Shown here piece after piece: positions 20,815-37,285 of a stretch of DNA of 64,000 nucleotides; within the stretch, counting starts at the first letter, position 1; every line of letters begins with the position of its first letter. The stretch is taken from NCBI GenBank assembly GCA_039191605.1, contig JBCCXL010000003.1, forward strand, positions 257,543 through 321,542, given 5' to 3'. This stretch comes from Acidobacteriota bacterium (lineage in GTDB: Bacteria; Acidobacteriota; Thermoanaerobaculia; Multivoradales; JAHZIX01). The position numbers and the translations under genes are program-made. Below the pieces are notes generated by a model, which saw only the letters and a program-made list of their open reading frames with translations, did no database searches and was not told the origin of the DNA.

Positions 20815-22257
20815 GTGATGAAGCGTGGCTCGAGATCATTGTGGGCTGAGGTGAACGCCGAGCCCACGGTTCGGGTAGCTCAGCTCTGTGGCGAGATTCA
20901 ATCCCTGGTGCGCCAGGGGTTCTCCTCCCTTTGGGTCGCCGGAGAAGTGCAGAGAGTCCAGCGCAGCCAGCGCGGCCATCTCTACTTCGAGCTGGTGGAC
21001 AAAGGGCAGGGGGATCGGGTCACGGCGAAGATCGACGCGGTGATCTGGCGTTCCGATCTCGCGAAGGTGGAGCGAGAGCTGCGCCGCAGTGATCAGAAGC
21101 TGGCGCCGGGCGTGGAGCTGCGATGCCGCGGAGGGGTGGACTTCTGGCCTCCCGGAGGGCGCCTGCAGCTGGTGGTGCGGGAGGTGGACCCGGCTTTCTC
21201 TCTGGGCCAGCTGGAGCTGCGCCGTCGCCAGACCCTGGCGGCGCTGCAAAAAGCCGAGCTGCTGGATCGCAACTCGGCCCTGACGCTGCCCCCGGTGCCC
21301 CTCAGGGTGGGCATGGTGAGCTCCTACGAGAGCGCGGCGTACCACGATTTCCTCTCCTCGCTGCAGTCCATCGCCTACGGTTTCGAGGTCACCTTCGTGC
21401 ACGCTGCGATGCAGGGGGCCGAAGCCGAACGAGAGGTGGTGTCGGCGCTGCGCGCCCTCGCCGGGCTGCCGCTGGACGTGGTGGTGGTGGTGCGGGGCGG
21501 CGGCTCGCGCACCGACCTAGCGGCCTTCGATAGCCGAGCGATTTCAGAAGCCATCGCCCGCTTTCCGCTACCGGTGGTCACCGGCATCGGCCACGAGATC
21601 GATCAGAGCATCGCCGACCGAGTCGCCCATACCGCGGTGAAGACCCCCACCGGGGCGGCGGAGCTGCTCATCGACCGAGTGGCGGGAGCGGATCTCGCCC
21701 TCGAGCAGATACAGCAGCGCCTATTGATCGCCGCTCGGGATCCGTTGAGCCGCGGCAAGGAGCGCCTGCTTCAGGCGGAGCGCGGGATGCGTCGGGCTCA
21801 GCTGCGATTGGCCTCCGTGTCCGCCCGCCTCGAGGAGCATGGGCGACGGCTGGCGCGCCTCGGCGGCGAGAGCCTGAGGCGCGGCGGGAGTGAAGTCCAG
21901 CGAATCGCCCAGCGCCTCGGCGTGGCCTCGCCCCGTTTTCTGGGGCGTCGCCGCGAGCTGCCGGAGACCCTGATGCATCGGGTGGTGATCAGCGCGCGAG
22001 CGAGGCTGGCCCGGGCTCATGCGGAGGTCGATGGCCGAGCTCGGCTGTGTCGTGATCTCGACCCCCAGCGCACCCTAGAACGGGGCTTTTCCATCACCCG
22101 CAGCGTCGACGGACGGCTGCTGCGGGGAGAGGGAGATCTCGCCGTAGGGGATCAGCTAGTGACTCGTTTCGCCGCCGGCAGCTGGATCAGCCGAGTGGAG
22201 GCGGAGCAAGAGGATTTGAACGTCGAACCCCCTGAGCCTACCGTGGAGACGCCATGA
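20815..22257 (+). CDS. xseA: Exodeoxyribonuclease VII large subunit
   Basis: The N-terminal OB-fold region ...VAQLCGEIQSLVRQGFSSLWVAGEVQRVQRSQRGHLYFELVDKG...RVTAKIDAVIWRS... and the catalytic core ...VVVVRGGGSRTDLAAFD...PVVTGIGHEIDQSIAD... are present. Confidence 0.85.
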   Translation: MMKRGSRSLWAEVNAEPTVRVAQLCGEIQSLVRQGFSSLWVAGEVQRVQRSQRGHLYFELVDKGQGDRVTAKIDAVIWRSDLAKVERELRRSDQKLAPGVELRCRGGVDFWPPGGRLQLVVREVDPAFSLGQLELRRRQTLAALQKAELLDRNSALTLPPVPLRVGMVSSYESAAYHDFLSSLQSIAYGFEVTFVHAAMQGAEAEREVVSALRALAGLPLDVVVVVRGGGSRTDLAAFDSRAISEAIARFPLPVVTGIGHEIDQSIADRVAHTAVKTPTGAAELLIDRVAGADLALEQIQQRLLIAARDPLSRGKERLLQAERGMRRAQLRLASVSARLEEHGRRLARLGGESLRRGGSEVQRIAQRLGVASPRFLGRRRELPETLMHRVVISARARLARAHAEVDGRARLCRDLDPQRTLERGFSITRSVDGRLLRGEGDLAVGDQLVTRFAAGSWISRVEAEQEDLNVEPPEPTVETP

Positions 22258-22532
22258 GCACTGATCCGACTACTGGCCCGATCCCTGGCCCCGAGAGCGC
22301 ATCCCCCGTCGAGAGCCAGCTAGAGGGAGAGAAGCTCTCCTTTTCCGATGCCCTCCAGCAGCTGGAGGAGATTCTCGGCCGCATCGAAGACGAGCGCATC
22401 GATATCGACGAGCTGGCGACGGAGCTGCGGCGAGGAGCGGGTCTACTGGATCTTTGCCGGGGCAAGATCCGGCGGGCGGAGCTCGAAGTGACCCAAATCG
22501 TGCAGCGCCTGGAAGACAGCGACGAGGGTTGA
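22254..22532 (+). CDS. xseB: Exodeoxyribonuclease VII small subunit
   Basis: 92 aa, with an ATGA start/stop overlap with xseA. ...LSFSDALQQLEEILGRIEDERIDIDELATELRRGAGLLDLCRGKI... is the typical XseB helical hairpin. Confidence 0.8.
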   Translation: MSTDPTTGPIPGPESASPVESQLEGEKLSFSDALQQLEEILGRIEDERIDIDELATELRRGAGLLDLCRGKIRRAELEVTQIVQRLEDSDEG

Positions 22533-22552: not shown

Positions 22553-22609
22553 GATTTGAGACTAGGCCTGTGATTTGAGACTAGGCCTGTGATTTGGGCC
22601 TAAGCCTGG
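22553..22609. repeat. 19-bp tandem direct repeat (gatttgagactaggcctgt x2, plus one degenerate copy)
   Basis: Read directly. It lies about 20 bp after the xseB stop, at the beginning of a ~500-bp non-coding region. Confidence 0.8.
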
Positions 22610-23034
22610 GGGTTTGGAACCTGTGGCCGGGGCGCCCCACGGGGACATCTTGCCAACCATCAGCGCGCTGCCCGCTTAGCGGTTCTTATTTTCTTCACGG
22701 TAGCGTCGTGCTATTTTTGACGGTACTCATCTGCTCGCAGAGGGTCGCCTGAAGTTCTAGGGGACCCGCTTTTCAACCGAAGGCCCTGCAATAGGCTCTG
22801 CCGCCAGGAAGCATCGATTCCTCCAGGATCTGGACGGGCTGTTCTCTCTGGCAGCGCGGAGCGCGGCTGGAAGGGGGGCGCGTAAAGTCCGCTGAAACAA
22901 GACTTTCGCCACCAACATAGTGTGAACTAAAGGATCTTCCCTCAGCGAAGAATCCGGTAGTGCTCCCCCCTTCTGAAGACTCTGAAAAAAGAATACCTAA
23001 AGCCCCCGCGGCGGAAAATTTCTCACTACCTACG

Positions 23035-23730
23035 ATGATCCAGGAATTTGTCAACGCTCTGCTCGAGCCGCCAACGGTGCTCTTCACCTCCCTGCTGGTG
23101 GTGGTGGTGGTCTACTGGCTCACGGTGATTCTGGGCATTTTCGATCTGGACCTCTTCGACCTCGATCTCGACCTCGATGTCGGAGTGGACGGGGCGATGG
23201 AGGGGGTGGAAGGTGCGCTGGAGCTCGGCGATGCCCCCGAGATTGGAGATGCTGGCCCGACGGGAGTCGCCGGGCTGCTCACCGCCCTCGGTCTCGCGGG
23301 GGTTCCCCTCACCGTCACGCTTTCCTTCCTCATCGTCTTCTCCTGGTTCCTCACCTATCAGGGCATGCGGGTTCTGCCGCTGCTGGACCTCAGCGGCGGC
23401 TTGATTCGCTGGCTGCTGCTCCCGGTGGTCTCGGTGTTGGTCTCGCTGGGGCTGACGTCGGTGCTGGTTCGCCCGCTGCGGCCGGTGTTTCGCACCGTTC
23501 CGGCGGCCTCGAGGCAGGATTTCTCCGGCCGCTCGGCGACGGTGGTTTCCTCCCACGTCGACCGCGAGCAGGGACGAGCGGAGATCGACGATGGCGGCGC
23601 TGGGTTGCTGGTAGAGGCCCGGCTGGTGTCGGGAGCCCCGGCTCTCCGGGGGGACCAGGTGACGGTGGTGCGCTACGACAACGATCTTGACGTGTTCTTC
23701 ATCACTCGCCGGGACGAGAGCCTGCAATAG
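23035..23730 (+). CDS. YqiJ/NfeD-like inner-membrane protein (multi-TM N-terminal half, C-terminal OB-fold-like domain)
   Basis: The hydrophobic N-terminal half is ...LFTSLLVVVVVYWLTVILGIF... with further TM segments. The acidic (DL)n linker is DLDLFDLDLDLDVGVDG. The C-terminal beta-rich region ...GRAEIDDGGAGLLVEARLVSGAPALRGDQVTVVRYDNDLDVFFITR... is typical of the NfeD C-terminal domain. It is encoded immediately upstream of a flotillin gene, as in E. coli yqiJ-yqiK. The start is chosen at MIQEF (23035). Confidence 0.6.
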   Translation: MIQEFVNALLEPPTVLFTSLLVVVVVYWLTVILGIFDLDLFDLDLDLDVGVDGAMEGVEGALELGDAPEIGDAGPTGVAGLLTALGLAGVPLTVTLSFLIVFSWFLTYQGMRVLPLLDLSGGLIRWLLLPVVSVLVSLGLTSVLVRPLRPVFRTVPAASRQDFSGRSATVVSSHVDREQGRAEIDDGGAGLLVEARLVSGAPALRGDQVTVVRYDNDLDVFFITRRDESLQ

Positions 23731-23762
23731 GCTTCCTCGGCAGGTCCGGCGGAGCCGCCGCG

Positions 23763-23787
23763 CTGCACTGCACTGCACTGCACCGCA
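23763..23787. repeat. Pentanucleotide tandem repeat (ctgca)x4 plus a degenerate copy
   Basis: gctgcactgcactgcactgcaccgcacc, read directly. It lies upstream of the flotillin gene. Confidence 0.7.
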
Positions 23788-23835
23788 CCGTGGTGAGCTT
23801 CGTTCCCAGGGCCTCGACGACTAGGAAAGGATCCG

Positions 23836-25893
23836 ATGGTCACTCTTGGCATTATCGCCCTCGTGCTCTTCGGCATTTTCGTGCTGCTGGGTCTACTGGT
23901 TCTTGTCGCTCGCTTCTATAAGAAGGTGGAGCAAGGCAAGGCGCTGATCGTTAACAAGATGTCCGCCGAGCCGGAAGTCACCTTCACCGGGGCCGTCGTG
24001 TTGCCGGTGATCCACAAGGCGGAGGTGATGGATATCTCGGTGAAGACCATCGAGATCGATCGCCGCGGTCTCGACGGTCTGATCTGTCAGGACAACATCC
24101 GGGCGGACATCAAAGTCACCTTCTTCGTGCGGGTGAATAAGACCAAGGAAGACGTCATCAAGGTCGCGCAGGCCATCGGCTGTCAGCGAGCTTCAGATCC
24201 GGGGACCCTCGAGGTGCTCTTCAACGCCAAGTTCTCGGAAGCGCTGAAGACCGTCGGTAAGCAGCTCGACTTCGTCGACCTCTACACCAAGCGGGATGAG
24301 TTCCGGGATCAGATCATTCACGTCATCGGGCGTGACCTCAACGGCTACGTGCTGGAGGACGCGGCCATCGACTATCTCGAGCAGACCCCGCTGGAGAAGC
24401 TCGATCGGGACAACATCCTCGATGCCCAGGGCATTCGCAAGATCACCGAGCTGACGGCGATTCAGCACGTCGCCACCAACGATTTCCGCCGCGACGAAGA
24501 GAAGAAGATCAAGAAGCAGGACGTCGAGGCGCGGGAGACGATTCTCGCCCTGGAGCGTCAGCAGGCGGACGCCGAGGCGCGACAGCGCCGCGAGATCGAA
24601 ACCGTGAAGTCGCGGGAGGAAGCGGAGATCCTGCGAGTCGCGGCGGAGGAGCTGCAGAAATCAGAGACCGCTCGCCTGGACTCCCAGGAGCAGGTCGCGG
24701 TGCGCGAAGAGAATATGAAGCGCCAGGTGGAGGTCGCGGCGAAGAATCGCGAGCGGGTGGTGGCCATCGAGCAGGAGCGGGTGTTGAAAGACAGCTCCCT
24801 AGAGGCGATCAGCCGCGAGCGGGAGGTGGAGCTACAGCGCATCGCTAAAGAGAAGGAGCTCGAGAAGGAGCGTAAGGCCATCGCCGACGTGGTGCGGGAG
24901 CGCATCGCGGTGGACAAGACGGTGGCGGAAGAGGAAGAGGGCATCAAGCGCCTGCGGGTGATCGAGGAAGCGCGCCGCACCAAGGAGGCAGCGGTGCTGA
25001 TCGCTGAGGGCGCCGCGGAAGAAGCGCTGGTGAAGGACGTCAAGGCGGCGGAAGCGGCGGAAGCGGCGGCGAAGCACAAGGCTCGCGAGATGCAGGTGCT
25101 CGCCGACTCGGAGCTCGCGGTGGCGGACAAGGAAGCTCAGTCGAAGATTCGACTCGCCGACGGTACCCAGGCTGCCGCGGCCGCCGAGGGCTTGGCCAAG
25201 GTCAAGGTGAAGGAGGCGGACGCCGTCGCTACCGAGAAATACGGTCTAGCGGAGATTCGGGTGAAGGAGGCGGACGCCGCCGCCCTGCGCCAGGTCGGCA
25301 CCGCGGAGGCGGAAGTGGAGCGCGAGAAGGGGCTCGCCACCGCGTCGGCGCTGGAAGCCAAGCTGGAGGCGGAAGCCAAGGGCCTGCGCGAGAAGGCCGA
25401 TGCGATGGCCGCCCTGGATGAGGTCAGCCGCCAGCACGAGGAATATCGACTGCGACTGGAGACCGAGAAGGACATCGAGCTGCGCGCCATCGAGGCTCGC
25501 CGCCAGGTGGCCGAGGCGCAGGCAGAGATGCTCGCCACCGCGCTGTCCTCCGCGAATATCGATATCGTCGGCGGCGAGAGCATCTTTGTCGACCGCCTGA
25601 TGAGCTCGCTGTCCTCGGCCAAGTCCCTGGACGCCTTCATGGACCGCAGCGAGACCGCGAAGCTGGCTCTGAAGGATTACGTGGACGGCGGACGGAGCTT
25701 CGCCGGAGACGTGCGGGAGGTGCTGGCGCAGAGCGATCTCGGCTCCGAGGACCTCAAGAACCTCACCCTCGCGGGGCTCTTGTCCCGCCTTGCCCGAGGC
25801 AAGTCCGGCGAGCAGGCCGAGCGTCTCGGGGAGCTGGCAAAGTTGGTGAACGAGGCGGGACTCGGAAACCTGCGCGCTCGCCTGGACGATTGA
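23836..25893 (+). CDS. Flotillin family protein (SPFH/band-7 domain; YqiK-like) with long Ala/Glu/Lys-rich coiled-coil
   Basis: 685 aa. N-terminal TM, then the SPFH domain ...FYKKVEQGKALIVNKMSAEPEVTFTGAVVLPVIHKAEVMDISVKTIEIDRRGLDGLICQDNIRADIKVTFFVRV.... An extended EA-repeat coiled-coil follows, typical of bacterial flotillins. Confidence 0.85.
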   Translation: MVTLGIIALVLFGIFVLLGLLVLVARFYKKVEQGKALIVNKMSAEPEVTFTGAVVLPVIHKAEVMDISVKTIEIDRRGLDGLICQDNIRADIKVTFFVRVNKTKEDVIKVAQAIGCQRASDPGTLEVLFNAKFSEALKTVGKQLDFVDLYTKRDEFRDQIIHVIGRDLNGYVLEDAAIDYLEQTPLEKLDRDNILDAQGIRKITELTAIQHVATNDFRRDEEKKIKKQDVEARETILALERQQADAEARQRREIETVKSREEAEILRVAAEELQKSETARLDSQEQVAVREENMKRQVEVAAKNRERVVAIEQERVLKDSSLEAISREREVELQRIAKEKELEKERKAIADVVRERIAVDKTVAEEEEGIKRLRVIEEARRTKEAAVLIAEGAAEEALVKDVKAAEAAEAAAKHKAREMQVLADSELAVADKEAQSKIRLADGTQAAAAAEGLAKVKVKEADAVATEKYGLAEIRVKEADAAALRQVGTAEAEVEREKGLATASALEAKLEAEAKGLREKADAMAALDEVSRQHEEYRLRLETEKDIELRAIEARRQVAEAQAEMLATALSSANIDIVGGESIFVDRLMSSLSSAKSLDAFMDRSETAKLALKDYVDGGRSFAGDVREVLAQSDLGSEDLKNLTLAGLLSRLARGKSGEQAERLGELAKLVNEAGLGNLRARLDD

Positions 25894-25951
25894 GGGCTCG
25901 GCTCGATGACGATCCGCGATGCGTTCCTCCTCCGGTGATGAAGGATCGGTC

Positions 25952-28900
25952 ATGACGGACGATCCTAATCTCGCCCGAGACGGTGCTGCCGAGGAGGCTT
26001 CCGCTCAGGGGGCAGCGCCGGGGGATGGTGACGCCGCCCTGGAGCGCGGCACCTACGAGCTGCTTCGAGAGCGGCTTGAAGGGGCCGCGGCGGTGCTGCG
26101 GCAGCAGGCCCAGCAGCTCAACTCGGCTCGCCTCGAGACCTTCGGCTCCAGCGAGCTGACCCTCGCCGGCCAGAGCCGCATCCGCACCGAGCACAATTGC
26201 CGTCCGCGGGATATCGCTACCGTCGGGGAGCGGCTCATCGTCGGATACGAGGTGCATTTCGGCCTGCGGCGGGAGACCTCCGTCGGTCACGTCTTCAGCG
26301 TCCATCGCTTCGGCGCCGAGGAGGGGGCCGATGCGCCCCCTCATCTGGAGCCAGCCCGTCCGGGAGACGATGGATTCCTGCAGGATGAGCGCTTCGCCCG
26401 AGATTTCGAGGAGCTCTTCCGCTACTACAAAGACACCCGCCTGCTGCAGCTGCGCAACGTCGGCGATCGCCTCTTGGGGGTCTTCCAGGTGGGCACCCGC
26501 CTTTCAGACCTCAAGGTGTTTCGCTGGAGTCTGGATCCCGAGGGTGGCGTCAGCTACATCGACAATCGAGGCGAGCGGGACCATACCTTCGCCGCCGCCT
26601 ACGACTTCGAGTGGCAGGAGGTCAGTCGCGACAGCGTCGTGCCGGGCCGTCACCCGCACCTCTCCATCGAGGACGAGCTCTTCGTCGAGACCATCGGTGG
26701 GGATCTCACCATCAAGGTAGAGAACAACACCGAAGACGGGCTGGGGATCTATCAAGAGCCGGTCATCGACCCCGATCAGAGCCTGGATGACGCCGAGCTT
26801 CGCTACGCTCGGGTGGGATCATTGATCCTGCTCTCGGTGCTGCCCTATCGCGAGCCCCAGGCGCGCTATTTCGTCTACAACACCCGCAACCGCACGGTGC
26901 ACCGTATCGACGCCATCGGCCAATCCTGCCGGCAGCTGCCGGAGGACCACGGCCTGATCTTCCCCGGCGGCTACTACCTGACGGCGACGGATTCTCCCAA
27001 GACCTTCGATCTGCGCCTCGACGGCCTGGAGCTGAAGACTTCGGTGCGCTCCCCCAACGGGGAGGACGTGCTCTACATCTTCCACCAGCGCTCCGAGGGC
27101 CGCAGCGTGCTGCTGCCCTACAACCTGATCCGCAAGGCGGTGGCGACGCCCATCGAATGCTTCGGCTTCACTATTTTCGACGACGGTACGCTGGTGGTCT
27201 TCCGGGCGATCTCCGATGAGCCGTCGCGGGTGCATCCGCTGCAAATCTGGCGTACGCCCTTTGCCAAGGCCGAATTCTTCGAATCTCCCAGCGATGGCTC
27301 TCCGCTGCAGCGATTGGGCAACGCGGAGCTGGTGCGAGGGATCTCCGACGCGCTGTCCCTCGCCCAGCGGGTGATGGAGCAGGAGCCCTCGCGGCGGGTG
27401 TACGAAGATCTCATCGCCGCCGCCCGGCGGATGGAAGACGCCTACCACTGGCTGGGGGACGAAGCCTACGGTGGCCTCGGAGAGGCGGTCGCCGAGCTGG
27501 TGGTGCTGGCGGAGCAGGTGGTCGATGAATTTGAGAAGGTGGAGGCGCTGCGGGCGCGGGCTCACGACGAGGTCAACACCGCTGAGGCGGAGCTCGACGA
27601 GCTGCTGTCGGGCCTCGCGCCGAGCTCCATCGATCGGGTGGAGCCCTTTCTCGAGGCCCTCGCTCAGCTGCGCCGGGCCCGCGGGCATCTGATCACGCTG
27701 CGGGATCTGCGCTACGCTGACCTCGACCGCCTGGAGGCCCTAGAGCAGCGAGCTCAGGGGGCCTTCGACGAGGTCAGCGAGCACGCGGTGGCCTTCTTCG
27801 CCGAGCCGAAAGCCCTGGAGCCCTTCCGCCGTACCCTGGGAGAGCTGGAGAGCTCGGTGGAGGCGGTGAGCTCGCTACGGGAGATCGATCCGCTGGCCCA
27901 GCGGGTGGACGAGCAGGCCCAGGGGCTGGAGCTGCTGGCCCAGGTGACCTCCGGGCTAGAGAGCGACGACGCCACCGTGCGCACCCGCATCCTGGAAGGG
28001 GTGAGCGAGGTGCTGGGGCAGCTGAACCGGGTGCGGGCCATCGTAGACGCTCGTCGCCGCGAGGTCGGAGCGCGGGAGGCGCGGGCGGAATTCGGCGTGC
28101 AGTTCCAGCTTCTCGGCCAGTCCGCCGCCGGGGCTCTGGCGGTGGCGAGCACCCCCGAAGCCTGTGATGAACAGCTGGCCAAGGTGCTGCTGCAGCTGGA
28201 GGACCTGGAGGCGCGCTTCGGCGCCTACGACGACTTCCTGGAGCAGATCACCACCAAGCGCGACGATCTCTACGAGGCCTTCGCCAGCCGCAAGCAGCGA
28301 CTCCTGGACGAGCGTCAGCGGCGGGTGGAGCACCTCTTCGGCGCCGCCCAGCGGGTGCTGGAGGGTATGGAGCGAAGGGCCGAGAGCTTCGACGACGACG
28401 ACGACCTCAACGCCTTCTTCGCCTCCGACCCCCTCGCCGAGCGGCTGCGACGCCTCGGCGGTCAGCTTCGAGAGCTGGGGGCAGGAGTGCGGGCCGACGA
28501 GCTGGAGAGCCGGGTCAAGAGCGCGCGGCAGCAGGCCCGTCGGGGAATGCGGGATCGCCGCGACCTCTTTACCGCCGAGGGGGATCTCATCACCTTCGGC
28601 GCCCATCGCTTCACCGTCAACCAACAGGCTCTAGAGCCAACTCTGGTACCCCGCGGTGACGACCTGGTGCTGCATCTCACCAGCACGGAGTATTACGAGG
28701 CCCTCGAGGACGAGCGGGTACAGGCCGCCCATCAGCTTTGGGAGCAGAGCCTGCCCTCGGAGAGCGAGGAGGTTTACCGCGGGGAGTTCCTGGCCTATTC
28801 CGTGTGGGCGGATTCCTCGCTGCCGGATGATCAGCGCCCGTCTGGATTCCCCTCTCGCCGCGAGCTGGAGTCGGCCGTCGCCGAGGGGGTCGAGGGGCTC

Positions 28901-31654
28901 ACCGCAATCCTGCAGCCGCTGGCGGCTCAGCGCTATGAGGAGGGCTACGAGCGGGGGCTCCACGACGTCGACGGTGCGCGCATTCTCGAGAGTCTGCTAC
29001 AGCTCGACGCGACCGCCGGCCTGCTGCGATTCGAGCCCCAGCCGCGGGCTCTGGCGGCCCTCTTCTGGGCCGGAGCGGAGGAAGATGATCGCGGTCACCG
29101 GGAGCTTCGTCGGGAGATCCGGGATCGAGCCCAGGCGCTGCATCGATTGCGCTCCACCTATGGCGGGGGCCAGGCCGTCGAGGGCTTTCTGGCGGAGCTC
29201 AGCCAGGCGCTGAGGGCGTTTTGTGCCGAACAAGAGCTGCTGTGGGGGGCGGATGAGTCAGCGAATCTGGAGGATGCACCGCCGGAGATTCCGTCAGGGC
29301 ACCCGTCGGGGGCATCGGGAGTACCAGGGGCGCTGCTGCAGGAAGCCGCCGCCTACCTTTTCGAGGTTCTCGCCGTCTCGCCGCAGCGTTTCCCCATGGA
29401 GTCGGCGGCGCAGGAGTTGGTCGAAGCGGCGGAGCCCCGACTGAAGCGGGCCGGGGCCCTCGAGGATCTGCGCCGCGGTCCGCTGGGGCGCCGAGTACAG
29501 ATCGCCGAGGCCTGGCTCTCGGGGGTGGCTCGGGAGCTGGAGGCTGAAGCACCGGAGCGCCAGGGGGGAATCCACCTCGCCTTAGCGCCCGCTACCGCCC
29601 TGCTGCTGGCGGCGGATCGCTTTGACGTGGAGATCAGCCACGGCGCCCTCAGCGCCCGGGTGGAAGGGCTGCTCGGCCGCCACGGACGGATCGAGGAGCG
29701 CACCCTCGCCCTGCGCCTGGACCGCTTTCTCTCTCGCCTGCGAGAGTTTCGCCAGCAGCGGGTTCCGGCCTTCCAGCGCTGGCAGCGGGTGCGTCACGAG
29801 GTGCTGGAAGAGCAGCGCCGCCGTCTGCGCCTCGACTCCATGACCCCGAAGGTGATGAGCGCCTTCGTGCGCAATCAGCTGGTGGATCAGGTTTACCTTC
29901 CCCTGGTGGGAGCAAACCTGGCGAAGCAGATGGGCTCCGCCGGAGCGCAGCGGCGCACCGACCAAATGGGCCTGCTGCTGCTGCTCTCGCCTCCGGGCTA
30001 CGGTAAGACCACCCTGATGGAATACGTCGCCCATCGCCTGGGGCTGGCTTTCCTCAAGATCGACGGGCCCGCCTTGGGCCATGACGTGCATTCTCTGGAT
30101 CCAGCCCAGGCGCCTTCCGCCACCGCCCGGCGAGAGGTGGAGAAGATCAATCTCGCCTTCGAGATGGGCAACAACGTGCTGCTCTACCTGGACGACATCC
30201 AGCACACCCATCCTGAGCTGCTGCAGAAGTTCATCTCCCTCTGCGACGCCCAGCGGCGTATCGAGGGCGTCTTTCGCGGCGAGCCTCGCAGCTACGACCT
30301 ACGGGGTAAGCGCTTCGCGGTGGTGATGGCGGGCAACCCCTACACCGAATCCGGCGAGACCTTCCGCATTCCGGACATGCTGTCCAACCGCGCCGACGTC
30401 TACAACCTGGGCGACGTGCTGAACGGTAAGGAAGATCTCTTCGCCCTGAGCTACCTCGAGAACGCCCTCACCTCCAACGCGACCTTGAGCCCCTTGGCGA
30501 GCCGAGACTTGGCGGATGTCGGGCTCTACGTGCGCTTGGCGAAGGGGGAAACGGTGCCTCCGGATCGCTTCGCCCATGCGGTCACCGGCGCCGAGCGGGC
30601 TGACCTGCTGGCGGTATTGCGTCATCTGCTTCGGGTACAGAGTGTGTTGATGGCGGTCAACCAGGCCTATATTCGATCCGCCGCCCAGGTGGATGCCTAC
30701 CGCTCCGAGCCGCCCTTCCTGCTGCAGGGTAGCTATCGCAACATGAATAAGGTTGCGGAGCGGGTGGTGCCGGTGATGAACGAGGCGGAGCTCGAGGCGT
30801 TGATCGATGATCATTACCTCGGCGAGGCCCAGACTCTCACCACCGGAGCGGAGCACAATCTCTTGAAGCTCGCTTTCTTGCGGGGGCGTGAGACGGAGGA
30901 GCAAAAAGAGCGCTGGGATGCCATCTGCCGTGCCTATGCGCGAGTTCAGGCCAGCGGCGGAGATGCCGACCCGGCGTCGCGGGTGGTAGGGCAGCTGAGC
31001 CTGCTGACAGAGGGGGTCGCCCAGGTCGGCCAGACCTTGGCGTCGGCGGCACAGGGGGAGACAGCTCCCTCCGAGACGTCCTCCCCCTGGACCCCGGAGC
31101 TGGTGCGGAGCGCGGCGACGGAGCTCTCCGCCCACTGGTCTCAGCAGCTGTCCCGCCATTTAGGAGCGCAACTCGGTGAGCACCTCGGGGATCCCCTGGG
31201 GGAGCGGCTGGCGCCGGTGCTGAATCGCCTTTCGGAGCAGCTGGAGCAGGACCGCTCCCCCACCCCCGTGCCGCCTCCGCTACCGGCGGCGGCAAGAATC
31301 GATAGTGAAGCCTTGGCCTCCGCGCTGCGGGGACCCATCGAAGAGCTGGGGGCGCAATTCGCCGAAGTGGCCAAAGCTCTGAGCGAATCTTCTCGTCCCG
31401 CTGTCGTACAATCCCTATCCGGTAGTGTGCGCAATCTGTTGGATGATTTGGTGCGCACGGTGGAGGATTCTTTGCTCCCGGCGGTCAGGCGCCTCAATCG
31501 CCGGGTCGAGGATGCCGAGGATGCTGAGGGAAGACATCTCTCCTCTCAGATCGACCGAGCGCTTACCGATCTCGATCGCTTGAAGGATTTTGCTGCTACT
31601 CTTCGATCGTTGGATGCTTCTTCTTCGAAGCCTCCACAAGCAGACCTCAGCTAG
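25952..31654 (+). CDS. Giant (~1,900 aa) AAA+ ATPase of the bacterial 'DNA repair ATPase'/DUF3686-like family
   Basis: A single uninterrupted ORF. Walker A is LLLLSPPGYGKTTLMEY (GYGKTT at 29996-30013). Walker B-like is NVLLYLDDIQHT. Sensor-like is VVMAGNPYTESGETFRIPDMLSNRADVYN. The beta-rich N-terminal ~500 aa are followed by a long helical middle region. The start is chosen at MTDDPN (25952; GAAGGA ribosome-binding site). An alternative ATG lies at 25919. Confidence 0.75.
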   Translation: MTDDPNLARDGAAEEASAQGAAPGDGDAALERGTYELLRERLEGAAAVLRQQAQQLNSARLETFGSSELTLAGQSRIRTEHNCRPRDIATVGERLIVGYEVHFGLRRETSVGHVFSVHRFGAEEGADAPPHLEPARPGDDGFLQDERFARDFEELFRYYKDTRLLQLRNVGDRLLGVFQVGTRLSDLKVFRWSLDPEGGVSYIDNRGERDHTFAAAYDFEWQEVSRDSVVPGRHPHLSIEDELFVETIGGDLTIKVENNTEDGLGIYQEPVIDPDQSLDDAELRYARVGSLILLSVLPYREPQARYFVYNTRNRTVHRIDAIGQSCRQLPEDHGLIFPGGYYLTATDSPKTFDLRLDGLELKTSVRSPNGEDVLYIFHQRSEGRSVLLPYNLIRKAVATPIECFGFTIFDDGTLVVFRAISDEPSRVHPLQIWRTPFAKAEFFESPSDGSPLQRLGNAELVRGISDALSLAQRVMEQEPSRRVYEDLIAAARRMEDAYHWLGDEAYGGLGEAVAELVVLAEQVVDEFEKVEALRARAHDEVNTAEAELDELLSGLAPSSIDRVEPFLEALAQLRRARGHLITLRDLRYADLDRLEALEQRAQGAFDEVSEHAVAFFAEPKALEPFRRTLGELESSVEAVSSLREIDPLAQRVDEQAQGLELLAQVTSGLESDDATVRTRILEGVSEVLGQLNRVRAIVDARRREVGAREARAEFGVQFQLLGQSAAGALAVASTPEACDEQLAKVLLQLEDLEARFGAYDDFLEQITTKRDDLYEAFASRKQRLLDERQRRVEHLFGAAQRVLEGMERRAESFDDDDDLNAFFASDPLAERLRRLGGQLRELGAGVRADELESRVKSARQQARRGMRDRRDLFTAEGDLITFGAHRFTVNQQALEPTLVPRGDDLVLHLTSTEYYEALEDERVQAAHQLWEQSLPSESEEVYRGEFLAYSVWADSSLPDDQRPSGFPSRRELESAVAEGVEGLTAILQPLAAQRYEEGYERGLHDVDGARILESLLQLDATAGLLRFEPQPRALAALFWAGAEEDDRGHRELRREIRDRAQALHRLRSTYGGGQAVEGFLAELSQALRAFCAEQELLWGADESANLEDAPPEIPSGHPSGASGVPGALLQEAAAYLFEVLAVSPQRFPMESAAQELVEAAEPRLKRAGALEDLRRGPLGRRVQIAEAWLSGVARELEAEAPERQGGIHLALAPATALLLAADRFDVEISHGALSARVEGLLGRHGRIEERTLALRLDRFLSRLREFRQQRVPAFQRWQRVRHEVLEEQRRRLRLDSMTPKVMSAFVRNQLVDQVYLPLVGANLAKQMGSAGAQRRTDQMGLLLLLSPPGYGKTTLMEYVAHRLGLAFLKIDGPALGHDVHSLDPAQAPSATARREVEKINLAFEMGNNVLLYLDDIQHTHPELLQKFISLCDAQRRIEGVFRGEPRSYDLRGKRFAVVMAGNPYTESGETFRIPDMLSNRADVYNLGDVLNGKEDLFALSYLENALTSNATLSPLASRDLADVGLYVRLAKGETVPPDRFAHAVTGAERADLLAVLRHLLRVQSVLMAVNQAYIRSAAQVDAYRSEPPFLLQGSYRNMNKVAERVVPVMNEAELEALIDDHYLGEAQTLTTGAEHNLLKLAFLRGRETEEQKERWDAICRAYARVQASGGDADPASRVVGQLSLLTEGVAQVGQTLASAAQGETAPSETSSPWTPELVRSAATELSAHWSQQLSRHLGAQLGEHLGDPLGERLAPVLNRLSEQLEQDRSPTPVPPPLPAAARIDSEALASALRGPIEELGAQFAEVAKALSESSRPAVVQSLSGSVRNLLDDLVRTVEDSLLPAVRRLNRRVEDAEDAEGRHLSSQIDRALTDLDRLKDFAATLRSLDASSSKPPQADLS

Positions 31655-31751
31655 TTGTCGCTGGGTCTACCTCATCCCTAGATCGCCACGAGGCTTCGCG
31701 TAATCTGTCTTGCCTCGTGCCCTTTATTGCCGCGAAGTAAAGGAGAATTCC

Positions 31752-33689
31752 GTGAATGAACCTCTGCCTCCTTATCTGCGATCCGCGCTGTTCGTAGATT
31801 TCGACAACATCTACATCCGATTACGCGAAGAAAGTGAAGAGGCCGCCGAGCATTTCGCTTCGGAGCCCCACCGTTGGCTCCGCTGGCTCGAAGAAGAGGC
31901 GCCGATGGTGGATGACCGCTTCCTCGATACCAAGGATCTGCCCCGGCGGATTCTGCTTCGCCGCTGCTATCTCAACCCCCGATCCTTCCATCAGAGCCGC
32001 CCTGCCTTTGTTCGGGCTGGCTTCGAGGTGGTGGACTGTCCGCCGCTGACTCACGGTGGCAAGACCAGCAGCGATATCCGCATGGTGATGGACATGATGG
32101 ATGCTCTATCCCACCCCAGCACCCGCTTCGACGAGATGATTCTCTTCTCCGGGGATGCGGACTTCACGCCGATCTTCACTCGCTTGCGGGCCAATGATCG
32201 CTTTACCGTGGCTCTGATCGTCGGCCAGGCCTCTTCCGCCTACCGCTCCGCCTGCGATCTCCTGCTCAGCGCCGACGAATTTGTCGAATCGGGGCTGGGG
32301 GTCTCCGGTGAAGCCCTGGAGGCTCGCCGAGAGGCTCCAACCCGCCTGCGCCCCCTGCTGGAAGGGATGCACGGCACCGTCGCCGATGCGGTGGCCAGCA
32401 CCGGGCCGGTGCCGGCGGATCGGCTGCCGATGATTTACAAGGAGTTCTCGGAGTTCCGCGAGGGTTCCGACTGGCTGGGCTTCATGAGTCTGCGGGGGCT
32501 TACGGAGGCCGTCGTTGAGGCCGGTAGCGGTCTCGTGCTGCGGGAAGAAGACCCCTGGGTCGTCGACTACGGACAGACCCCGGTGGTGAATCGTGGCGAG
32601 TCGGCGGTGCCTGCATCTGGCCCCAGCCCCAGCCCGAGCTCGGGCCCCAGCCTGGGCCCCGGTCCGTCCGCTCCTCCGCCTACCGGTTGGCGCAGCGATT
32701 TCGGCGAGCGCGCCGCGGCGGTGGTGCGGGCAGCGGTGGTCGAGTCCGACGAGCCGCTGAGCCTCGCGGGTCTCTCCCATCGCCTGATGCGCGAGCTGGG
32801 GGAAGGGGTGCGCTCCCGCGCCTGGCAGGGCGCCGGCTCTTTCCGCGCCTTCCTCGAGGGGCTAGACCTCGAAGGCCTGGAGATCTCCCGGGTCACGCCG
32901 GGCTACGTGTATGACCCGGTGCGCCATGACCCGCCGGCGGAGGCCCGCGACGGGGACGAATTCGCCCGCCGCTACCCGGAGCTTTCGGAGCTCGCCCGGC
33001 GCATTCATGACGCCACCGACGCGCCCTACCTGATGCCTGACGTGTACGCGGTGATGATGCGGGTCATCGCCGAGGAGATCAACGAGCGGGGCTACCACCT
33101 GGTGCGGACCTCCAAGGCGGTGCGCGACATCTGCAACGGCAAGGGTGTTCCGGTGGCCCGCTCCCACGTTTCTTTCGTCCTCAAGGGCATCCAATACTCG
33201 GGTTATTCCTATCGCCAGGGTCAGGAGAGCGCCCAGGAGCTGGGCCGAGCCTTCGTCCAGAACCTGCTCTTCCTCTGCGATCGTGCCGAGCTCTCTTTGT
33301 CAGATGACGAGAGCGACGCCGTGCGCCGCTGGATCCTCGCTCCCATCGACTACTCCCCAGGAGCCTCCGCCTCGCCGAGCCCTCCCGCTACGAGCTCCCG
33401 CCCGTCGACCTCCTCCGATGAGAGTTGGGAAGAAGACGACGAGTACGAGGACTACGACGAAGAGGACGATTGGGACGGCGAGGACGAGGAAGGTGACGAA
33501 CCCGACGCCGATCCCGACGCCGAAGCCTCCGACGAGGACGAGGACGAGGAGGACTTCGACGACGAGGAAGACGACGAAGAAGACGACGAAGAAGACGAGG
33601 ATGAGGGCGACGAGGACGACGACGAAGACGAGGATGAGGACGACGACGAAGACGACGATGACGAAGAAGAGGACGACAAGGACGATTGA
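31752..33689 (+). CDS. NYN-domain (LabA-like PIN-fold) protein with OST-HTH/LOTUS-like repeats and ~90-aa polyacidic C-terminal tail
   Basis: The NYN signature is ALFVDFDNIYI...SSDIRMVMDMMDALSHPSTRFDEMILFSGDADFTPIF...FTVALIV. The middle and C-terminal segments (…LPMIYKEFSEFREGSDWLGFMSLRGLTEAV… and …LSLAGLSHRLMRELGEGVRSRAWQGAGSFRAFLEG…) resemble OST-HTH modules. The tail is an uninterrupted D/E run. The GTG start at 31752 sits 6 nt after AAGGAG. The ORF track's TTG at 31710 is less likely. Confidence 0.75.
   Translation: MNEPLPPYLRSALFVDFDNIYIRLREESEEAAEHFASEPHRWLRWLEEEAPMVDDRFLDTKDLPRRILLRRCYLNPRSFHQSRPAFVRAGFEVVDCPPLTHGGKTSSDIRMVMDMMDALSHPSTRFDEMILFSGDADFTPIFTRLRANDRFTVALIVGQASSAYRSACDLLLSADEFVESGLGVSGEALEARREAPTRLRPLLEGMHGTVADAVASTGPVPADRLPMIYKEFSEFREGSDWLGFMSLRGLTEAVVEAGSGLVLREEDPWVVDYGQTPVVNRGESAVPASGPSPSPSSGPSLGPGPSAPPPTGWRSDFGERAAAVVRAAVVESDEPLSLAGLSHRLMRELGEGVRSRAWQGAGSFRAFLEGLDLEGLEISRVTPGYVYDPVRHDPPAEARDGDEFARRYPELSELARRIHDATDAPYLMPDVYAVMMRVIAEEINERGYHLVRTSKAVRDICNGKGVPVARSHVSFVLKGIQYSGYSYRQGQESAQELGRAFVQNLLFLCDRAELSLSDDESDAVRRWILAPIDYSPGASASPSPPATSSRPSTSSDESWEEDDEYEDYDEEDDWDGEDEEGDEPDADPDAEASDEDEDEEDFDDEEDDEEDDEEDEDEGDEDDDEDEDEDDDEDDDDEEEDDKDD
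33420..33686 (+). repeat. Low-complexity GA[CGA]-codon run encoding the D/E-rich tail of the NYN protein
   Basis: ...DEEDDWDGEDEEGDEPDADPDAEASDEDEDEEDFDDEEDDEEDDEEDEDEGDEDDDEDEDEDDDEDDDDEEEDDKDD. Confidence 0.9.
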
Positions 33690-34424: not shown

Positions 34425-34826
34425 ATGCGCTACCTAGTTTTGATCGGAGTCACCCTGTGGCTGTTGGTCCTGGTGACTCCCGCAGTGCTTGCAGTCCCTG
34501 TTGGTGAGAGCGACTCGCCCAACTCGCCATCGGAGAGCTGGGCGGGTCAATCGGTGGCGGAAAGCCCTTCGATCTCCACTCCTTCCGAGTCGGTCTTCCT
34601 TCCCGGCGCGAGCGCTGGTGGGGCGGGTCGACAAGGAGATCTCGAGCCGCAGGAGTATCGTGTCTGCGGCGCATCCTGCACCAAGATCACCGGGCTATGC
34701 GCCTGTGCTTTCGATCCGCTGGATTGCTGTGATGGCAAGGCTTGCGCGGCCTTCAATCTCTGCGAGTTCACGGGAGCACAGAAAGCACCGCAGAGAACGA
34801 ATTCCAGCAGTCAGTCCAGCGACTGA
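34425..34826 (+). CDS. Small secreted cysteine-rich protein (133-aa precursor; 9 Cys within ~35 aa)
   Basis: GAAGGAG ribosome-binding site. The signal peptide is MRYLVLIGVTLWLLVLVTPAVLA. After a Ser/Pro-rich region comes the Cys cluster CGASCTKITGLCACAFDPLDCCDGKACAAFNLCEF. Confidence 0.5.
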   Translation: MRYLVLIGVTLWLLVLVTPAVLAVPVGESDSPNSPSESWAGQSVAESPSISTPSESVFLPGASAGGAGRQGDLEPQEYRVCGASCTKITGLCACAFDPLDCCDGKACAAFNLCEFTGAQKAPQRTNSSSQSSD

Positions 34827-34849
34827 GCTGGAGCCTTCATTGGAATCTC

Positions 34850-37285
34850 ATGGACTGGCGCTGGCTCATTTCCTTGGCGGCTCTCCTCGTGTTGGGCGCC
34901 GGCGAGGCGAAGGCGGAGCAATCCTTCCGATTCCTGCTGGTGCCGGAAGCGCATTGGGCTTCAGGGCAGCCTGATGTCAGCGCGGCCCTAGATACAGGGC
35001 AGGTCTATCTGTATCGAGCGGGCGCCTATCGCCCTGAGTTTGTGGCATCGGCCGGAGAGAGCATTTCTCTTCCTGCTGGCGTGTGGCATTGGGTGGCGGA
35101 GTCCGAAGGGTGGGTGAGTGTCGCTTCCGGCCGGCTGGAGATTCCGCTGGGTCGGGTGGGAGCTGAACAGACGCTGATTTGGCCGGTAGTGCCGGCATGC
35201 CGCCTGGAATTAGGATCCATCGCCGGGTGGCAGGGGGTGGAGCGAGTGGACGCGCTGAGCCTCGACCGGTCCACCGTTCATCCCGTGGCGCCGCTGGACC
35301 GGCTAGAAGTCAACGTCCCGGCGGGCCGCTATCTGGTAACCGTCTACGGTGGTCGCGGGCTCGAAGCGATATCGGCCATCGCTCGGTGTCGGGCTGGGGA
35401 GGCTGTCCGGCTCACGAGACCGGAGGTTCCGACGGACACGGTAGATCTCCTGGTGCACGGGCACTGGCCCGGAGGCGCGGAACCGTCGAGGGATACGGAG
35501 GACGACGCTCTCGTCCTCGGCGTTCATGAGCGAGGCTCCGGCCGCCTGGTGCGCCTCGCCGAGGTCGACTTGCGGGTGGGAAGTCGCTCCTCCTTCGTCG
35601 TTCGGAATCTGCCGATGGATCAGGATCTCGAGCTTCGCTGGTCTCACCCAAGTCTGCGCAGCGGCAGCCGGGAGATACCCTCTGACCGCTCCGGGGCCCG
35701 CGAGATGGAAGAGATCCTCTGGCGCCCGCGGGCTGCCGTGGAGGTGCCGGTGGAGTATCTACCGCTCCAGGAGCATGAGGAAGCTCGGCTGTGGATTTCC
35801 CGCTGCGGCGACGGGGCGGTCCAGGACTTCTTGGAAGTGGACTTCGCTGAGTGTCGCGATGTGACGCAAACTCAGCCTCTGAACCAGGGTTTGGGGCGCT
35901 ATCGCTTCGAGGGTCTCGACCTTGGTTGGCACGTAGTGATGGCTCAGGTGGACGACGATTGGATTCCCGGTCTCGGTGAGGCCGTTGCGCTGCAGGTTCT
36001 CGACGCAACGCCGAACCTCGTTGAGCTGGAACCTGCTGCCCTAGAAGAGCTGCGAATTGAGGGCCGCATCTTGTTGGACGGCGAGGCGACCGTCGGCGAG
36101 GTCCGTCTACTGCCTCAGGCGACGCTTCCCGGGACGCCGAGGATCTTCGCCACCGCGGAAGATCTGCGCTACCAGATGACCTTCTTTGCCGAGACTCCCA
36201 CTCGTTTCTACCGCTCTCGCCTGCCCGAAACGCTGCGGGGGCGTTCTGACGCCGAGCTTCGGGGTCTCTTCGTTCGCTACCGGCTGCTCGTCTGTCCAGA
36301 GGTCAATGACGCTGAGGCGGACGAAATCCATCTTGGCGGGTGCCATGCCATTCACCCTCGCTCTACTTTCTCCGGTGGCGGAACGATGGATCTCGAGCTC
36401 TCTGGCCGCTCTCTGCGGGTGGAGCTGGTCGACGACAGCAGCGGCGAGCCCATCGATGGTCGAGGGACTCGAGCTGGGGTGGTCGCTCGCCCCCGAGCTG
36501 GAGCGGCCTACGACACGCTGCATTTCTTTCATGGCGAGATCTATCGTCGTGAGGCTGCTTCCTTCGAAGCAGCGCCGGTTGCTGTCGATGGCGAGGGCAT
36601 CGCTCTTCTTCATGGCGTGAGCGAGGGAGAGATCGTTGTCGTGGCGGTCGCCGATGGCTACCGGCGGGCGGAGCTTTCCGTGGCCGCTGATGTGCACGAG
36701 GCGAGTCTGCGTCTCGAGCGAGACCCCGAATCGGGGCCGGCGGCGATCACATTGGAGCTTCCCTCAGCTTCTGGCGGCCTAGGCGGAGCTCGCGAACCCG
36801 CCGCCGGCGCCTACTTGGTGGCCGCCGGCGCCCTGGGATCCCTACCTAGATGTCACCAGCGCTCCGACCGAGGGGGCCGAGTGAACTGGCCCGGCAGCTG
36901 CCCAACTCAGGGCCTGCGCCGGGCTCTGGTCTTCCATCCTCGTGTTCCGGTACAGGCCGTACGTCTCGTCTTCTTGCCGCCGGACCGCCGAGTGCCGCTC
37001 GTTGCGGGCCCCGCCCGCCCGGTGGAGCTGTGGACTCGCGATCTCAGCGGCCTACCAGCGCCACGGGAACCGGTGGATTGGCGTATCGACGGCATCCTGC
37101 TCAATGCTGATACTGCCTTGCGGGCCCTCAGTGCTAGTGGATCAACGCTTCCCTTTCGCACCGATGCGCAGGGGCGTCTCGATTTTCTGGCGACGGCTGG
37201 AGCCAAGGTCGAGGCCCGTCCTCGGCAGGGAGATGAATGGACTTCGTGGATTCCCGGAGAGCCTCTGGATTTGATCATCCCCTAG
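34850..37285 (+). CDS. Large secreted protein of unknown function (~811 aa)
   Basis: Long ORF with the signal peptide MDWRWLISLAALLVLGAGEAKA. No recognisable catalytic motifs. The start is chosen at the internal Met at 34850, which avoids overlap with the upstream Cys-rich gene. Confidence 0.5.
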   Translation: MDWRWLISLAALLVLGAGEAKAEQSFRFLLVPEAHWASGQPDVSAALDTGQVYLYRAGAYRPEFVASAGESISLPAGVWHWVAESEGWVSVASGRLEIPLGRVGAEQTLIWPVVPACRLELGSIAGWQGVERVDALSLDRSTVHPVAPLDRLEVNVPAGRYLVTVYGGRGLEAISAIARCRAGEAVRLTRPEVPTDTVDLLVHGHWPGGAEPSRDTEDDALVLGVHERGSGRLVRLAEVDLRVGSRSSFVVRNLPMDQDLELRWSHPSLRSGSREIPSDRSGAREMEEILWRPRAAVEVPVEYLPLQEHEEARLWISRCGDGAVQDFLEVDFAECRDVTQTQPLNQGLGRYRFEGLDLGWHVVMAQVDDDWIPGLGEAVALQVLDATPNLVELEPAALEELRIEGRILLDGEATVGEVRLLPQATLPGTPRIFATAEDLRYQMTFFAETPTRFYRSRLPETLRGRSDAELRGLFVRYRLLVCPEVNDAEADEIHLGGCHAIHPRSTFSGGGTMDLELSGRSLRVELVDDSSGEPIDGRGTRAGVVARPRAGAAYDTLHFFHGEIYRREAASFEAAPVAVDGEGIALLHGVSEGEIVVVAVADGYRRAELSVAADVHEASLRLERDPESGPAAITLELPSASGGLGGAREPAAGAYLVAAGALGSLPRCHQRSDRGGRVNWPGSCPTQGLRRALVFHPRVPVQAVRLVFLPPDRRVPLVAGPARPVELWTRDLSGLPAPREPVDWRIDGILLNADTALRALSASGSTLPFRTDAQGRLDFLATAGAKVEARPRQGDEWTSWIPGEPLDLIIP

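Follow-up and report, generated by a model that had tools for sequence, protein, structure and literature searches.

Within a stretch of 64,000 nucleotides (nt) from an Acidobacteriota bacterium (contig JBCCXL010000003.1, positions 257,543 to 321,542; hereafter the window), four co-directional genes follow each other on the plus strand. They encode a YqiJ/NfeD-like membrane protein (gene 1), a flotillin, a giant AAA+ ATPase and a protein with a NYN domain. In a preliminary description, made from the letters of the sequence, the four had been put forward as one transcription unit and as a combination that was not a described system. The comparisons reported below indicate that the first three genes constitute a conserved trio which is already described, that a four-gene system is unsupported and that the NYN gene is a chance neighbour. 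The description of the locus itself proved accurate. The open reading frames (ORFs) are located at 22960-23730, 23836-25893, 25919-31654 and 31710-33689, and the gaps between the genes are short: 105 nt between gene 1 and the flotillin gene, 25 nt between the flotillin and ATPase genes (58 nt with the NCBI start of the ATPase) and 97 nt between the ATPase and NYN genes. The last gap was counted to the likely NYN start, the GTG at 31752, which is preceded at 6 nt by the Shine-Dalgarno sequence AAGGAG. The ORF of gene 1 opens at GTG 22960, and its probable start is the ATG at 23035, directly 5' of the first transmembrane segment. The GC content across the block is unremarkable. The features are listed in Table 1.

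Table 1. Features of the four-gene block, in coordinates of the window.
Feature	Coordinates	Strand	Basis
Gene 1, YqiJ/NfeD-like inner-membrane protein	23035..23730	+	three hydrophobic segments, C-terminal OB-like beta domain
Gene 2, YqiK-type flotillin, 685 residues	23836..25893	+	BLASTP to E. coli YqiK; synteny with the ATPase gene
Gene 3, giant ATPase, 1,911 residues (1,900 from the NCBI start)	25919..31654	+	Pfam DUF3686, DUF7902, AAA/AAA_5
DUF3686 region of the ATPase, residues 60-510	26096..27448	+	Pfam, E 3e-191
MoxR-class AAA+ motor of the ATPase, about residues 1340-1700	29936..31018	+	motifs, structural model
GC-rich hairpin (CACGAGGC...GCCUCGUG) followed by CCCUUUAUU, ATPase-NYN spacer	31687..31719	+	RNA fold, z -1.16
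NYN/LabA-like gene, predicted RNase, 645 residues, outside the conserved module	31752..33689	+	Pfam NYN, E 6e-19

The products of genes 1 and 2 yielded no Pfam or NCBIfam match at all, even at E<=10, and were therefore compared with the E. coli prototypes YqiJ and YqiK, taken from MG1655. The alignment of the flotillin with YqiK (BLASTP, E 2e-35) spans 432 residues at 28% identity and takes in the Band_7 region of YqiK. The Band_7 model itself (PF01145) was matched by 5 of the 30 flotillin family members, with a best E of 4.5e-12, and the window flotillin was without a match to it at E<=10; likewise the Pfam Flot C-terminal domain was undetected in the window flotillin. Its homologues are named flotillin/YqiK at NCBI and JGI, and its translation shows a membrane anchor at the N-terminus, a region that we read as a divergent SPFH domain and a long coiled coil rich in Ala and Glu. 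In the case of gene 1, BLASTP gave no match to E. coli YqiJ, whereas the profile of the 26-sequence gene 1 family did match YqiJ (hhalign probability 94.7%, E 6e-8), over both the transmembrane and the C-terminal OB regions. The three hydrophobic segments and the C-terminal beta domain of its translation fit the YqiJ/YuaF type with three transmembrane segments. Searches of the family profiles against the PDB sequences recovered no SPFH structure for the flotillin and nothing relevant for the YqiJ-like protein. On the basis of these sequence comparisons genes 1 and 2 are a YqiJ/YqiK-type pair, as had been proposed, both being divergent members. They share with yqiJ-yqiK of E. coli the organization as a two-gene membrane pair and the gene order, with a homologous flotillin and a gene 1 that is related at profile level. 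The E. coli pair differs in that yqiK is followed by sibD/ibsD and not by an ATPase gene, and in that the Flot and Band_7 domains of the window flotillin are below detection.

The third gene encodes the ATPase with DUF3686 and AAA domains that the preliminary description had recognized. It is the counterpart of BacE/PA3728 of Pseudomonas aeruginosa and carries the database annotation 'DNA repair ATPase'. We scored 5,138 homologues, and the 120 listed were all of one architecture; the N-terminal region was recovered in 917 representatives at E<=1e-3 and in 273 at E<=1e-30, within a library clustered at 50% identity. Sequence searches against the PDB (phmmer and profile searches) returned only P-loop matches, namely p97, Rix7 and RuvB, apart from a designed coiled coil that matched the C-terminal tail, and the first 1,227 residues had no solved-structure relative by sequence. 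The name 'DNA repair ATPase' probably stems from the fact that such searches match the P-loop only. Ravi et al. (2024, PMC11237479) described the DUF3686 region as beta-propeller repeats that follow an N-terminal coiled coil, and it is presumed to be a docking or substrate-binding module. No paper in the literature library that was searched names DUF3686.

To characterize the motor, residues 1228-1911 were modelled with 39 homologues. The mean predicted local distance difference test (pLDDT) value was 73, with values mostly between 75 and 96 in the AAA+ core and a few blocks near 50-65. In a Foldseek search with the motor model the highest target-normalised TM-scores were obtained for NorQ. 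The motifs comprise a Walker A SPPGYGKTT, a Walker B LYLDD (within LYLDDIQH), a beta-hairpin before sensor 1, the sensor-1 sequence MAGNP (within MAGNPYT) and the arginine of ANRAD; these elements are invariant in the homologues and fit the model. The motor of the ATPase thus is of the MoxR class: its best structural matches belong to the MoxR family (CbbQ, NorQ, RavA) and it has the same motif layout, including the pre-sensor-1 hairpin. Nevertheless, there are clear differences. MoxR proteins count ~250-500 residues and work with a VWA adaptor, whereas the window motor occupies residues ~1340-1700 of a 1,911-residue protein, behind DUF3686, DUF7902 and ~600 helical residues, and has a Walker B that reads DD and not DE. 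Long helices are predicted C-terminal to the motor. No VWA gene accompanies it, and scans of the four proteins and of ten flanking ORFs recovered no VWA/MIDAS domain. A motor of this class would suit a chaperone-like protein that remodels a membrane scaffold better than one engaged in DNA transactions, and the standard label 'DNA repair ATPase' is unsupported. In some myxobacteria the DUF3686 ATPase has an additional PilZ domain (PF07238) at its N-terminus, as in P0235 and P0238 of Chondromyces crocatus, which suggests an input of cyclic di-GMP into the system; at one DUF3686 ATPase locus a GGDEF gene is located directly downstream.

The conservation of the block was analyzed in 80 loci of species-representative genomes, which were retrieved via an alignment of ATPase homologues and scanned by tblastn with the window proteins. 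The loci are from Myxococcota, Actinomycetota, Gamma- and Betaproteobacteria, Acidobacteriota and others. In 76 loci a flotillin gene was the immediate upstream neighbour of the ATPase gene, with the same orientation; in two it was located 3-6 kb upstream, and in two the region is cut by the contig end. The flotillin thus lies within the flank of the ATPase gene in 78 of the 80 loci, which bears out the statement in the preliminary description that the two are repeatedly neighbours. A YqiJ-like gene was detected directly upstream of the flotillin gene in 67 loci, and several of the misses were cases of limited sensitivity or of contig ends. The order YqiJ-like gene, flotillin gene, ATPase gene is therefore near-invariant, with tight spacing, across at least four phyla, and the three-gene module is widespread among soil, marine and pathogenic bacteria.

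Beyond the trio the loci diverge. Gammaproteobacterial loci have genes for DUF2170 and PspA added upstream of the trio, and tblastn recovered homologues of PspA in 13, of DUF2170 in 15, of a PLD-like protein in 7 and of a rhomboid protein in 7 of the other loci, the latter two downstream of the ATPase gene; none of the four has a homologue anywhere in the 64-kb window (tblastn). When the co-directional ORF directly 3' of the ATPase gene was annotated with Pfam in 76 other loci, a rhomboid domain was found in six, PLDc_2 in three and NYN in one, the rest being singletons. The trio is thus without a conserved fourth gene, and the additions are lineage-specific: NYN here, PspA/DUF2170 and PLD in the Gammaproteobacteria, rhomboid elsewhere. 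The PLD-like and rhomboid neighbours fit a membrane theme. That the invariant core equals the trio also tells which parts a reconstitution needs.

The system is not new, contrary to what had been supposed. Ravi et al. (mSystems 2024, PMC11237479) described an operon that joins CesT/Tir-PspA genes with genes for a flotillin, an AAA+ ATPase, a YqiJ/YuaF protein with three transmembrane segments and sometimes a PLD hydrolase, for which they proposed a chaperone-like or membrane-dynamics role. They also reported more widely distributed abbreviated operons (flotillin, YqiJ/YuaF and sometimes the ATPase), and the gene set of the window is that of the abbreviated operon. In concept, the arrangement resembles Vps4 with ESCRT-III and the PspA-associated AAA+ proteins, where an AAA+ motor is encoded beside a membrane-scaffold polymer as its proposed remodeller (PMC11237479). 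A close known relative is the bac cluster of P. aeruginosa, which the preliminary description had named correctly: the Pseudomonas loci have the order DUF2170, PspA, YqiJ-like, flotillin, ATPase, and their proteins are 45-47% (ATPase) and 51-53% (flotillin) identical to those of the window. In strain PA14 the genes PA14_16140-16200 were established by reverse transcription PCR to form a single six-gene operon, bacABCDEF, for which a sigma-54 site was proposed on basis of the sequence; in a bacA mutant all six products, BacA to BacF, accumulate together (Wallart et al. 2024, PMC10948618). The expression of PA3728-PA3732 was found to be upregulated in every phage-infected P. aeruginosa sample (PMC12041424). 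The window shares with bacABCDEF (PA3732-PA3727) the three core genes in the same order, i.e. those for BacC (YqiJ-like), BacD/PaFlo3 (flotillin) and BacE (DUF3686 ATPase). It differs in that the counterparts of BacA (DUF2170), BacB (PspA) and the PLD-like BacF are missing and a NYN gene is present downstream instead.

The NYN protein itself looks functional. Its NYN domain (PF01936) is also supported by the fold: in the AlphaFold model (mean pLDDT 78) the highest ranking Foldseek matches were the LabA-like structure 2qip and the NYN domain of MARF1 (target-normalised TM-score 0.74-0.80), followed by ROQ domains of Roquin. A search of the PDB with the NYN profile returned 2qip only (E 0.07). 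No substitution of D16, D18, D108, D135 or D137 occurs in 60 sequences; the active site appears intact, and the protein is a predicted RNase. Behind the NYN domain two alpha/beta modules of ~75 residues (~200-273 and ~316-387) are modelled with confidence; they look like winged helices and are followed by a helical C-terminal domain. The preliminary description had named OST-HTH-like repeats and an acidic tail. The NYN domain and the tail, which measures ~95 residues, stood up to analysis, and the OST-HTH repeats were not verified: Pfam OST-HTH (PF12872) matched neither the window protein nor its 120 best homologues, and the top 50 fold matches included ROQ winged-helix domains and no LOTUS entry. 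The term 'LOTUS-like' is plausible for the modelled modules at the level of fold class only. Among the domains that had been named for a Pfam search, DUF3686, AAA and NYN were thus recovered in the window proteins, whereas NfeD/YqiJ, Band_7 and OST-HTH were not. The protein has in common with MARF1-type NYN-LOTUS proteins and the bacterial LabA-OST-HTH proteins the NYN fold, the conserved acidic residues and the small alpha/beta helical modules that follow; it differs from them in the absence of a Pfam OST-HTH match, with the ROQ domain of Roquin as its nearest non-NYN fold, and in the long polyacidic tail. The tail is unusual even within the family, and a single one of 24 aligned homologues shares it. 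P0317, another family member from the Acidobacteriota, independently has a long polyacidic stretch at its C-terminus, unlike most members.

The proposed continuation of the trio into the NYN gene failed in the synteny comparison. NYN was encountered in none of the 80 species-representative trio loci (tblastn). Among eight close relatives, with ATPases 51-55% identical to that of the window, it follows the ATPase gene in one (L087) and is missing there in the seven others (L001, L088/89, L090/91, L173, L174, L175 and L176). L087 and the window have TPR-xseA-xseB upstream and DUF427 downstream in common, and considering the fact that they share the whole neighbourhood, the common position of the NYN gene is explained by descent. 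A comparison of NYN-domain distances was ambiguous, as the L087 copy ranks 117th of 121 from the window copy and yet both fall in one five-member neighbour-joining clade; the orthology of the two therefore rests on the shared synteny. Approached from the other side, the result is the same: in the 83 NYN-family loci that were inspected (three look-ups and 80 metagenome loci), the gene never adjoins a flotillin or ATPase gene, and 45 of these loci are informative, having at least 3 kb of upstream sequence. As judged from these comparisons, the NYN gene is an adjacent gene in lineage-specific synteny and not a component of the conserved module, and the family normally stands alone. The only recurrent neighbour of the NYN gene elsewhere is a gene for a protein of ~135 residues that follows it, in L081, L084-L086 and 13+5 of the metagenome loci L092-L171. 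In L081 and L084-L086 this protein is YjbQ-like, and in L084-L086 a gene for an MprF-like lysylphosphatidylglycerol (LPG) synthase comes next. The YjbQ-like neighbour may hint at a functional context of the NYN family's own.

The transcription signals around the junction between the ATPase and NYN genes leave room for a connection. The consensus terminator scan predicted no terminator inside the four-gene block, and a scan for sigma-70 promoters found nothing. The spacer contains an 8-bp GC hairpin followed by the U-rich CCCUUUAUU (Table 1), which was unreported by the terminator scan. This element may be a weak terminator or attenuator, although its RNA fold z of only -1.16 makes it statistically not distinctive, and it is possible that the NYN gene is read through from the trio operon. 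A second predicted hairpin (31720-31745) involves CCUUUAUU, which pairs with the AAGGAG Shine-Dalgarno sequence of the NYN gene. According to the prediction it could occlude translation of the NYN gene, without statistical support.

Given these data, we consider it rather likely that the segment 23035-31654 is a conserved trio, an abbreviated version of the Psp-associated operon, which encodes a scaffold-remodelling machine and has the NYN gene as a separate neighbour. The machine would probably serve the maintenance of membrane scaffolds or the response to envelope stress. Its operon status and induction are taken from the literature on the Pseudomonas orthologues, and we infer docking and remodelling as follows. 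The flotillin and its OB-fold partner would form an SPFH cage or microdomain on the inner membrane, at its cytoplasmic face, by oligomerisation of the flotillin; we picture this assembly after the solved SPFH-NfeD complexes. The ATPase would dock on this scaffold via its N-terminal coiled coil and DUF3686 region. Under envelope stress it would, probably as a ring, spend ATP in the manner of MoxR proteins on building, reshaping or taking apart the scaffold or its clients. In loci with PspA, the ATPase may also act on the ESCRT-III-like PspA polymer. Several points weigh against this interpretation. We know of no demonstrated physical interaction between an ATPase of this kind and a flotillin. 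MoxR ATPases are usually paired with a VWA-domain partner, and there is none among the four genes. The NYN gene is co-directional, follows after 97 nt without a strong terminator upstream and has the same position in L087. Finally, the deletion of the flotillin PaFlo3 in P. aeruginosa led to ~20% less biofilm and no other phenotype (PMC13086221).

The points that concern the NYN gene could be taken to mean that the four genes do form one system, in which the flotillin platform and the ATPase control an RNase effector, be it for nucleic-acid surveillance, anti-phage activity or membrane-localised RNA decay. Besides the co-directional arrangement and the position in L087, this would agree with the conserved catalytic residues of NYN, with the phage induction of the Pseudomonas operon, with the effect of flotillins on RNase Y and RNase J assemblies in Staphylococcus aureus and Helicobacter pylori (PMC7492731) and with the fact that the slot 3' of the ATPase gene often holds a hydrolase (PLD, rhomboid, alpha/beta-hydrolase). 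However, NYN is absent downstream from all 80 species loci and from 7 of the 8 close relatives, it stands alone elsewhere (0 of the 45 informative loci adjoin the trio), descent explains its position in L087, and the spacer has the possible hairpin with its U-rich tract. Nor does the locus resemble a defence island: with PADLOC-DB 2.0, PADLOC gave noise-level matches only (IetA, E 4.8e-4, in the P-loop region, and a NYN model, E 9e-4; nothing for genes 1 and 2), and the flanks (xseA/xseB, TPR, MBL-fold, DUF427, EEP-family) are housekeeping and hence not a defence-island setting. We therefore regard a four-gene system as improbable. A restricted variant, to which we give just as little credence, holds that the operon took up the NYN RNase, otherwise a stand-alone gene, as a co-transcribed fourth member within a narrow clade related to Acidobacteriota and represented by the window and L087. 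Such a capture would link localised cleavage of RNA to an SPFH platform in the membrane, comparable to the flotillin-dependent RNase Y and RNase J assemblies. More generally, the slot 3' of the ATPase gene (PLD, rhomboid, alpha/beta-hydrolase, NYN) might be a variable position for 'effectors' in one system of stress response or conflict.

The phage induction could also be explained by assuming that the trio itself is a membrane-acting anti-phage or abortive-infection system, of which envelope stress is only the visible symptom. The distribution within Pseudomonas is patchy, which suggests horizontal transfer (PMC13086221), and the variable gene 3' of the ATPase gene, often a hydrolase, would suit such a function as well. 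Yet no PADLOC model fits, the best one (IetA, a rounded E of 5e-4) being matched via the shared P-loop, and the setting is a housekeeping one that is syntenic across the clade. Moreover, classical Psp systems are phage-induced without being immune systems. Taken together, this makes an anti-phage trio unlikely. The least probable explanation, in our view a very remote one, is that the giant protein is a true DNA-repair ATPase, with the flotillin adjacency being either incidental or related to membrane-tethered DNA transactions. It could draw on the names given by Pfam and PGAP ('ATPase involved in DNA repair', 'DNA repair ATPase'), on a weak similarity to RuvB around Walker A, on the location of xseA and xseB (exonuclease VII) directly upstream in this clade and on the raised spontaneous mutation rate of a YqiK-family knockout in Shewanella (PMC1468410). 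The authors of the latter study, however, blamed iron and oxidative stress and described the locus without an ATPase (PMC1468410). In addition, no DNA-binding or nuclease domain was found in the ATPase (Pfam and PDB searches), no paper in the searched library names DUF3686, and while the flotillin and ATPase genes are neighbours in different phyla, xseAB is next to the trio in one clade only. The xseAB-trio synteny, being clade-specific, may have reinforced the 'DNA repair' label.

With respect to the flanks, the block is preceded by a TPR gene and then by xseA/xseB (20815-22532), and is followed by DUF427, an ORF of 847 codons and an EEP-family gene; an MBL-fold gene is among the other flanking genes. 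The pair xseA-xseB is itself preceded by a small ORF (164-183 residues), and this group is present directly 5' of the trio in the window, L001, L087 and L088; in the window and in L087 the region 5' of the trio additionally encodes a large TPR protein. In two Acidobacteriota-type contigs (L090:2605-4902 and L176:1545-3830) another gene lies directly 5' of the trio and co-directional with it, which encodes a protein of ~765 residues without a Pfam family and with a Rossmann-like GGTGAVGG N-terminus. The two copies are 53% identical, and the protein is absent from the window and all other loci; upon comparison the product of the 847-codon ORF did not match it. Likewise, the ORFs of 133 and 847 codons located 3' of the NYN gene did not correspond to the YjbQ and MprF-like genes found behind NYN in other loci. 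The 847-residue protein (34742-37285, 3' of DUF427) belongs to no Pfam family, resembled none of the proteins it was compared with and has an N-terminus that looks like a signal or transmembrane segment. The spacer between xseB and gene 1 measures ~430-500 nt and contains a 19-nt tandem repeat, GATTTGAGACTAGGCCTGT (22553-22608; 2.9 copies, 91% matches), with two terminator-like hairpins just 3' of it (22666-22710).

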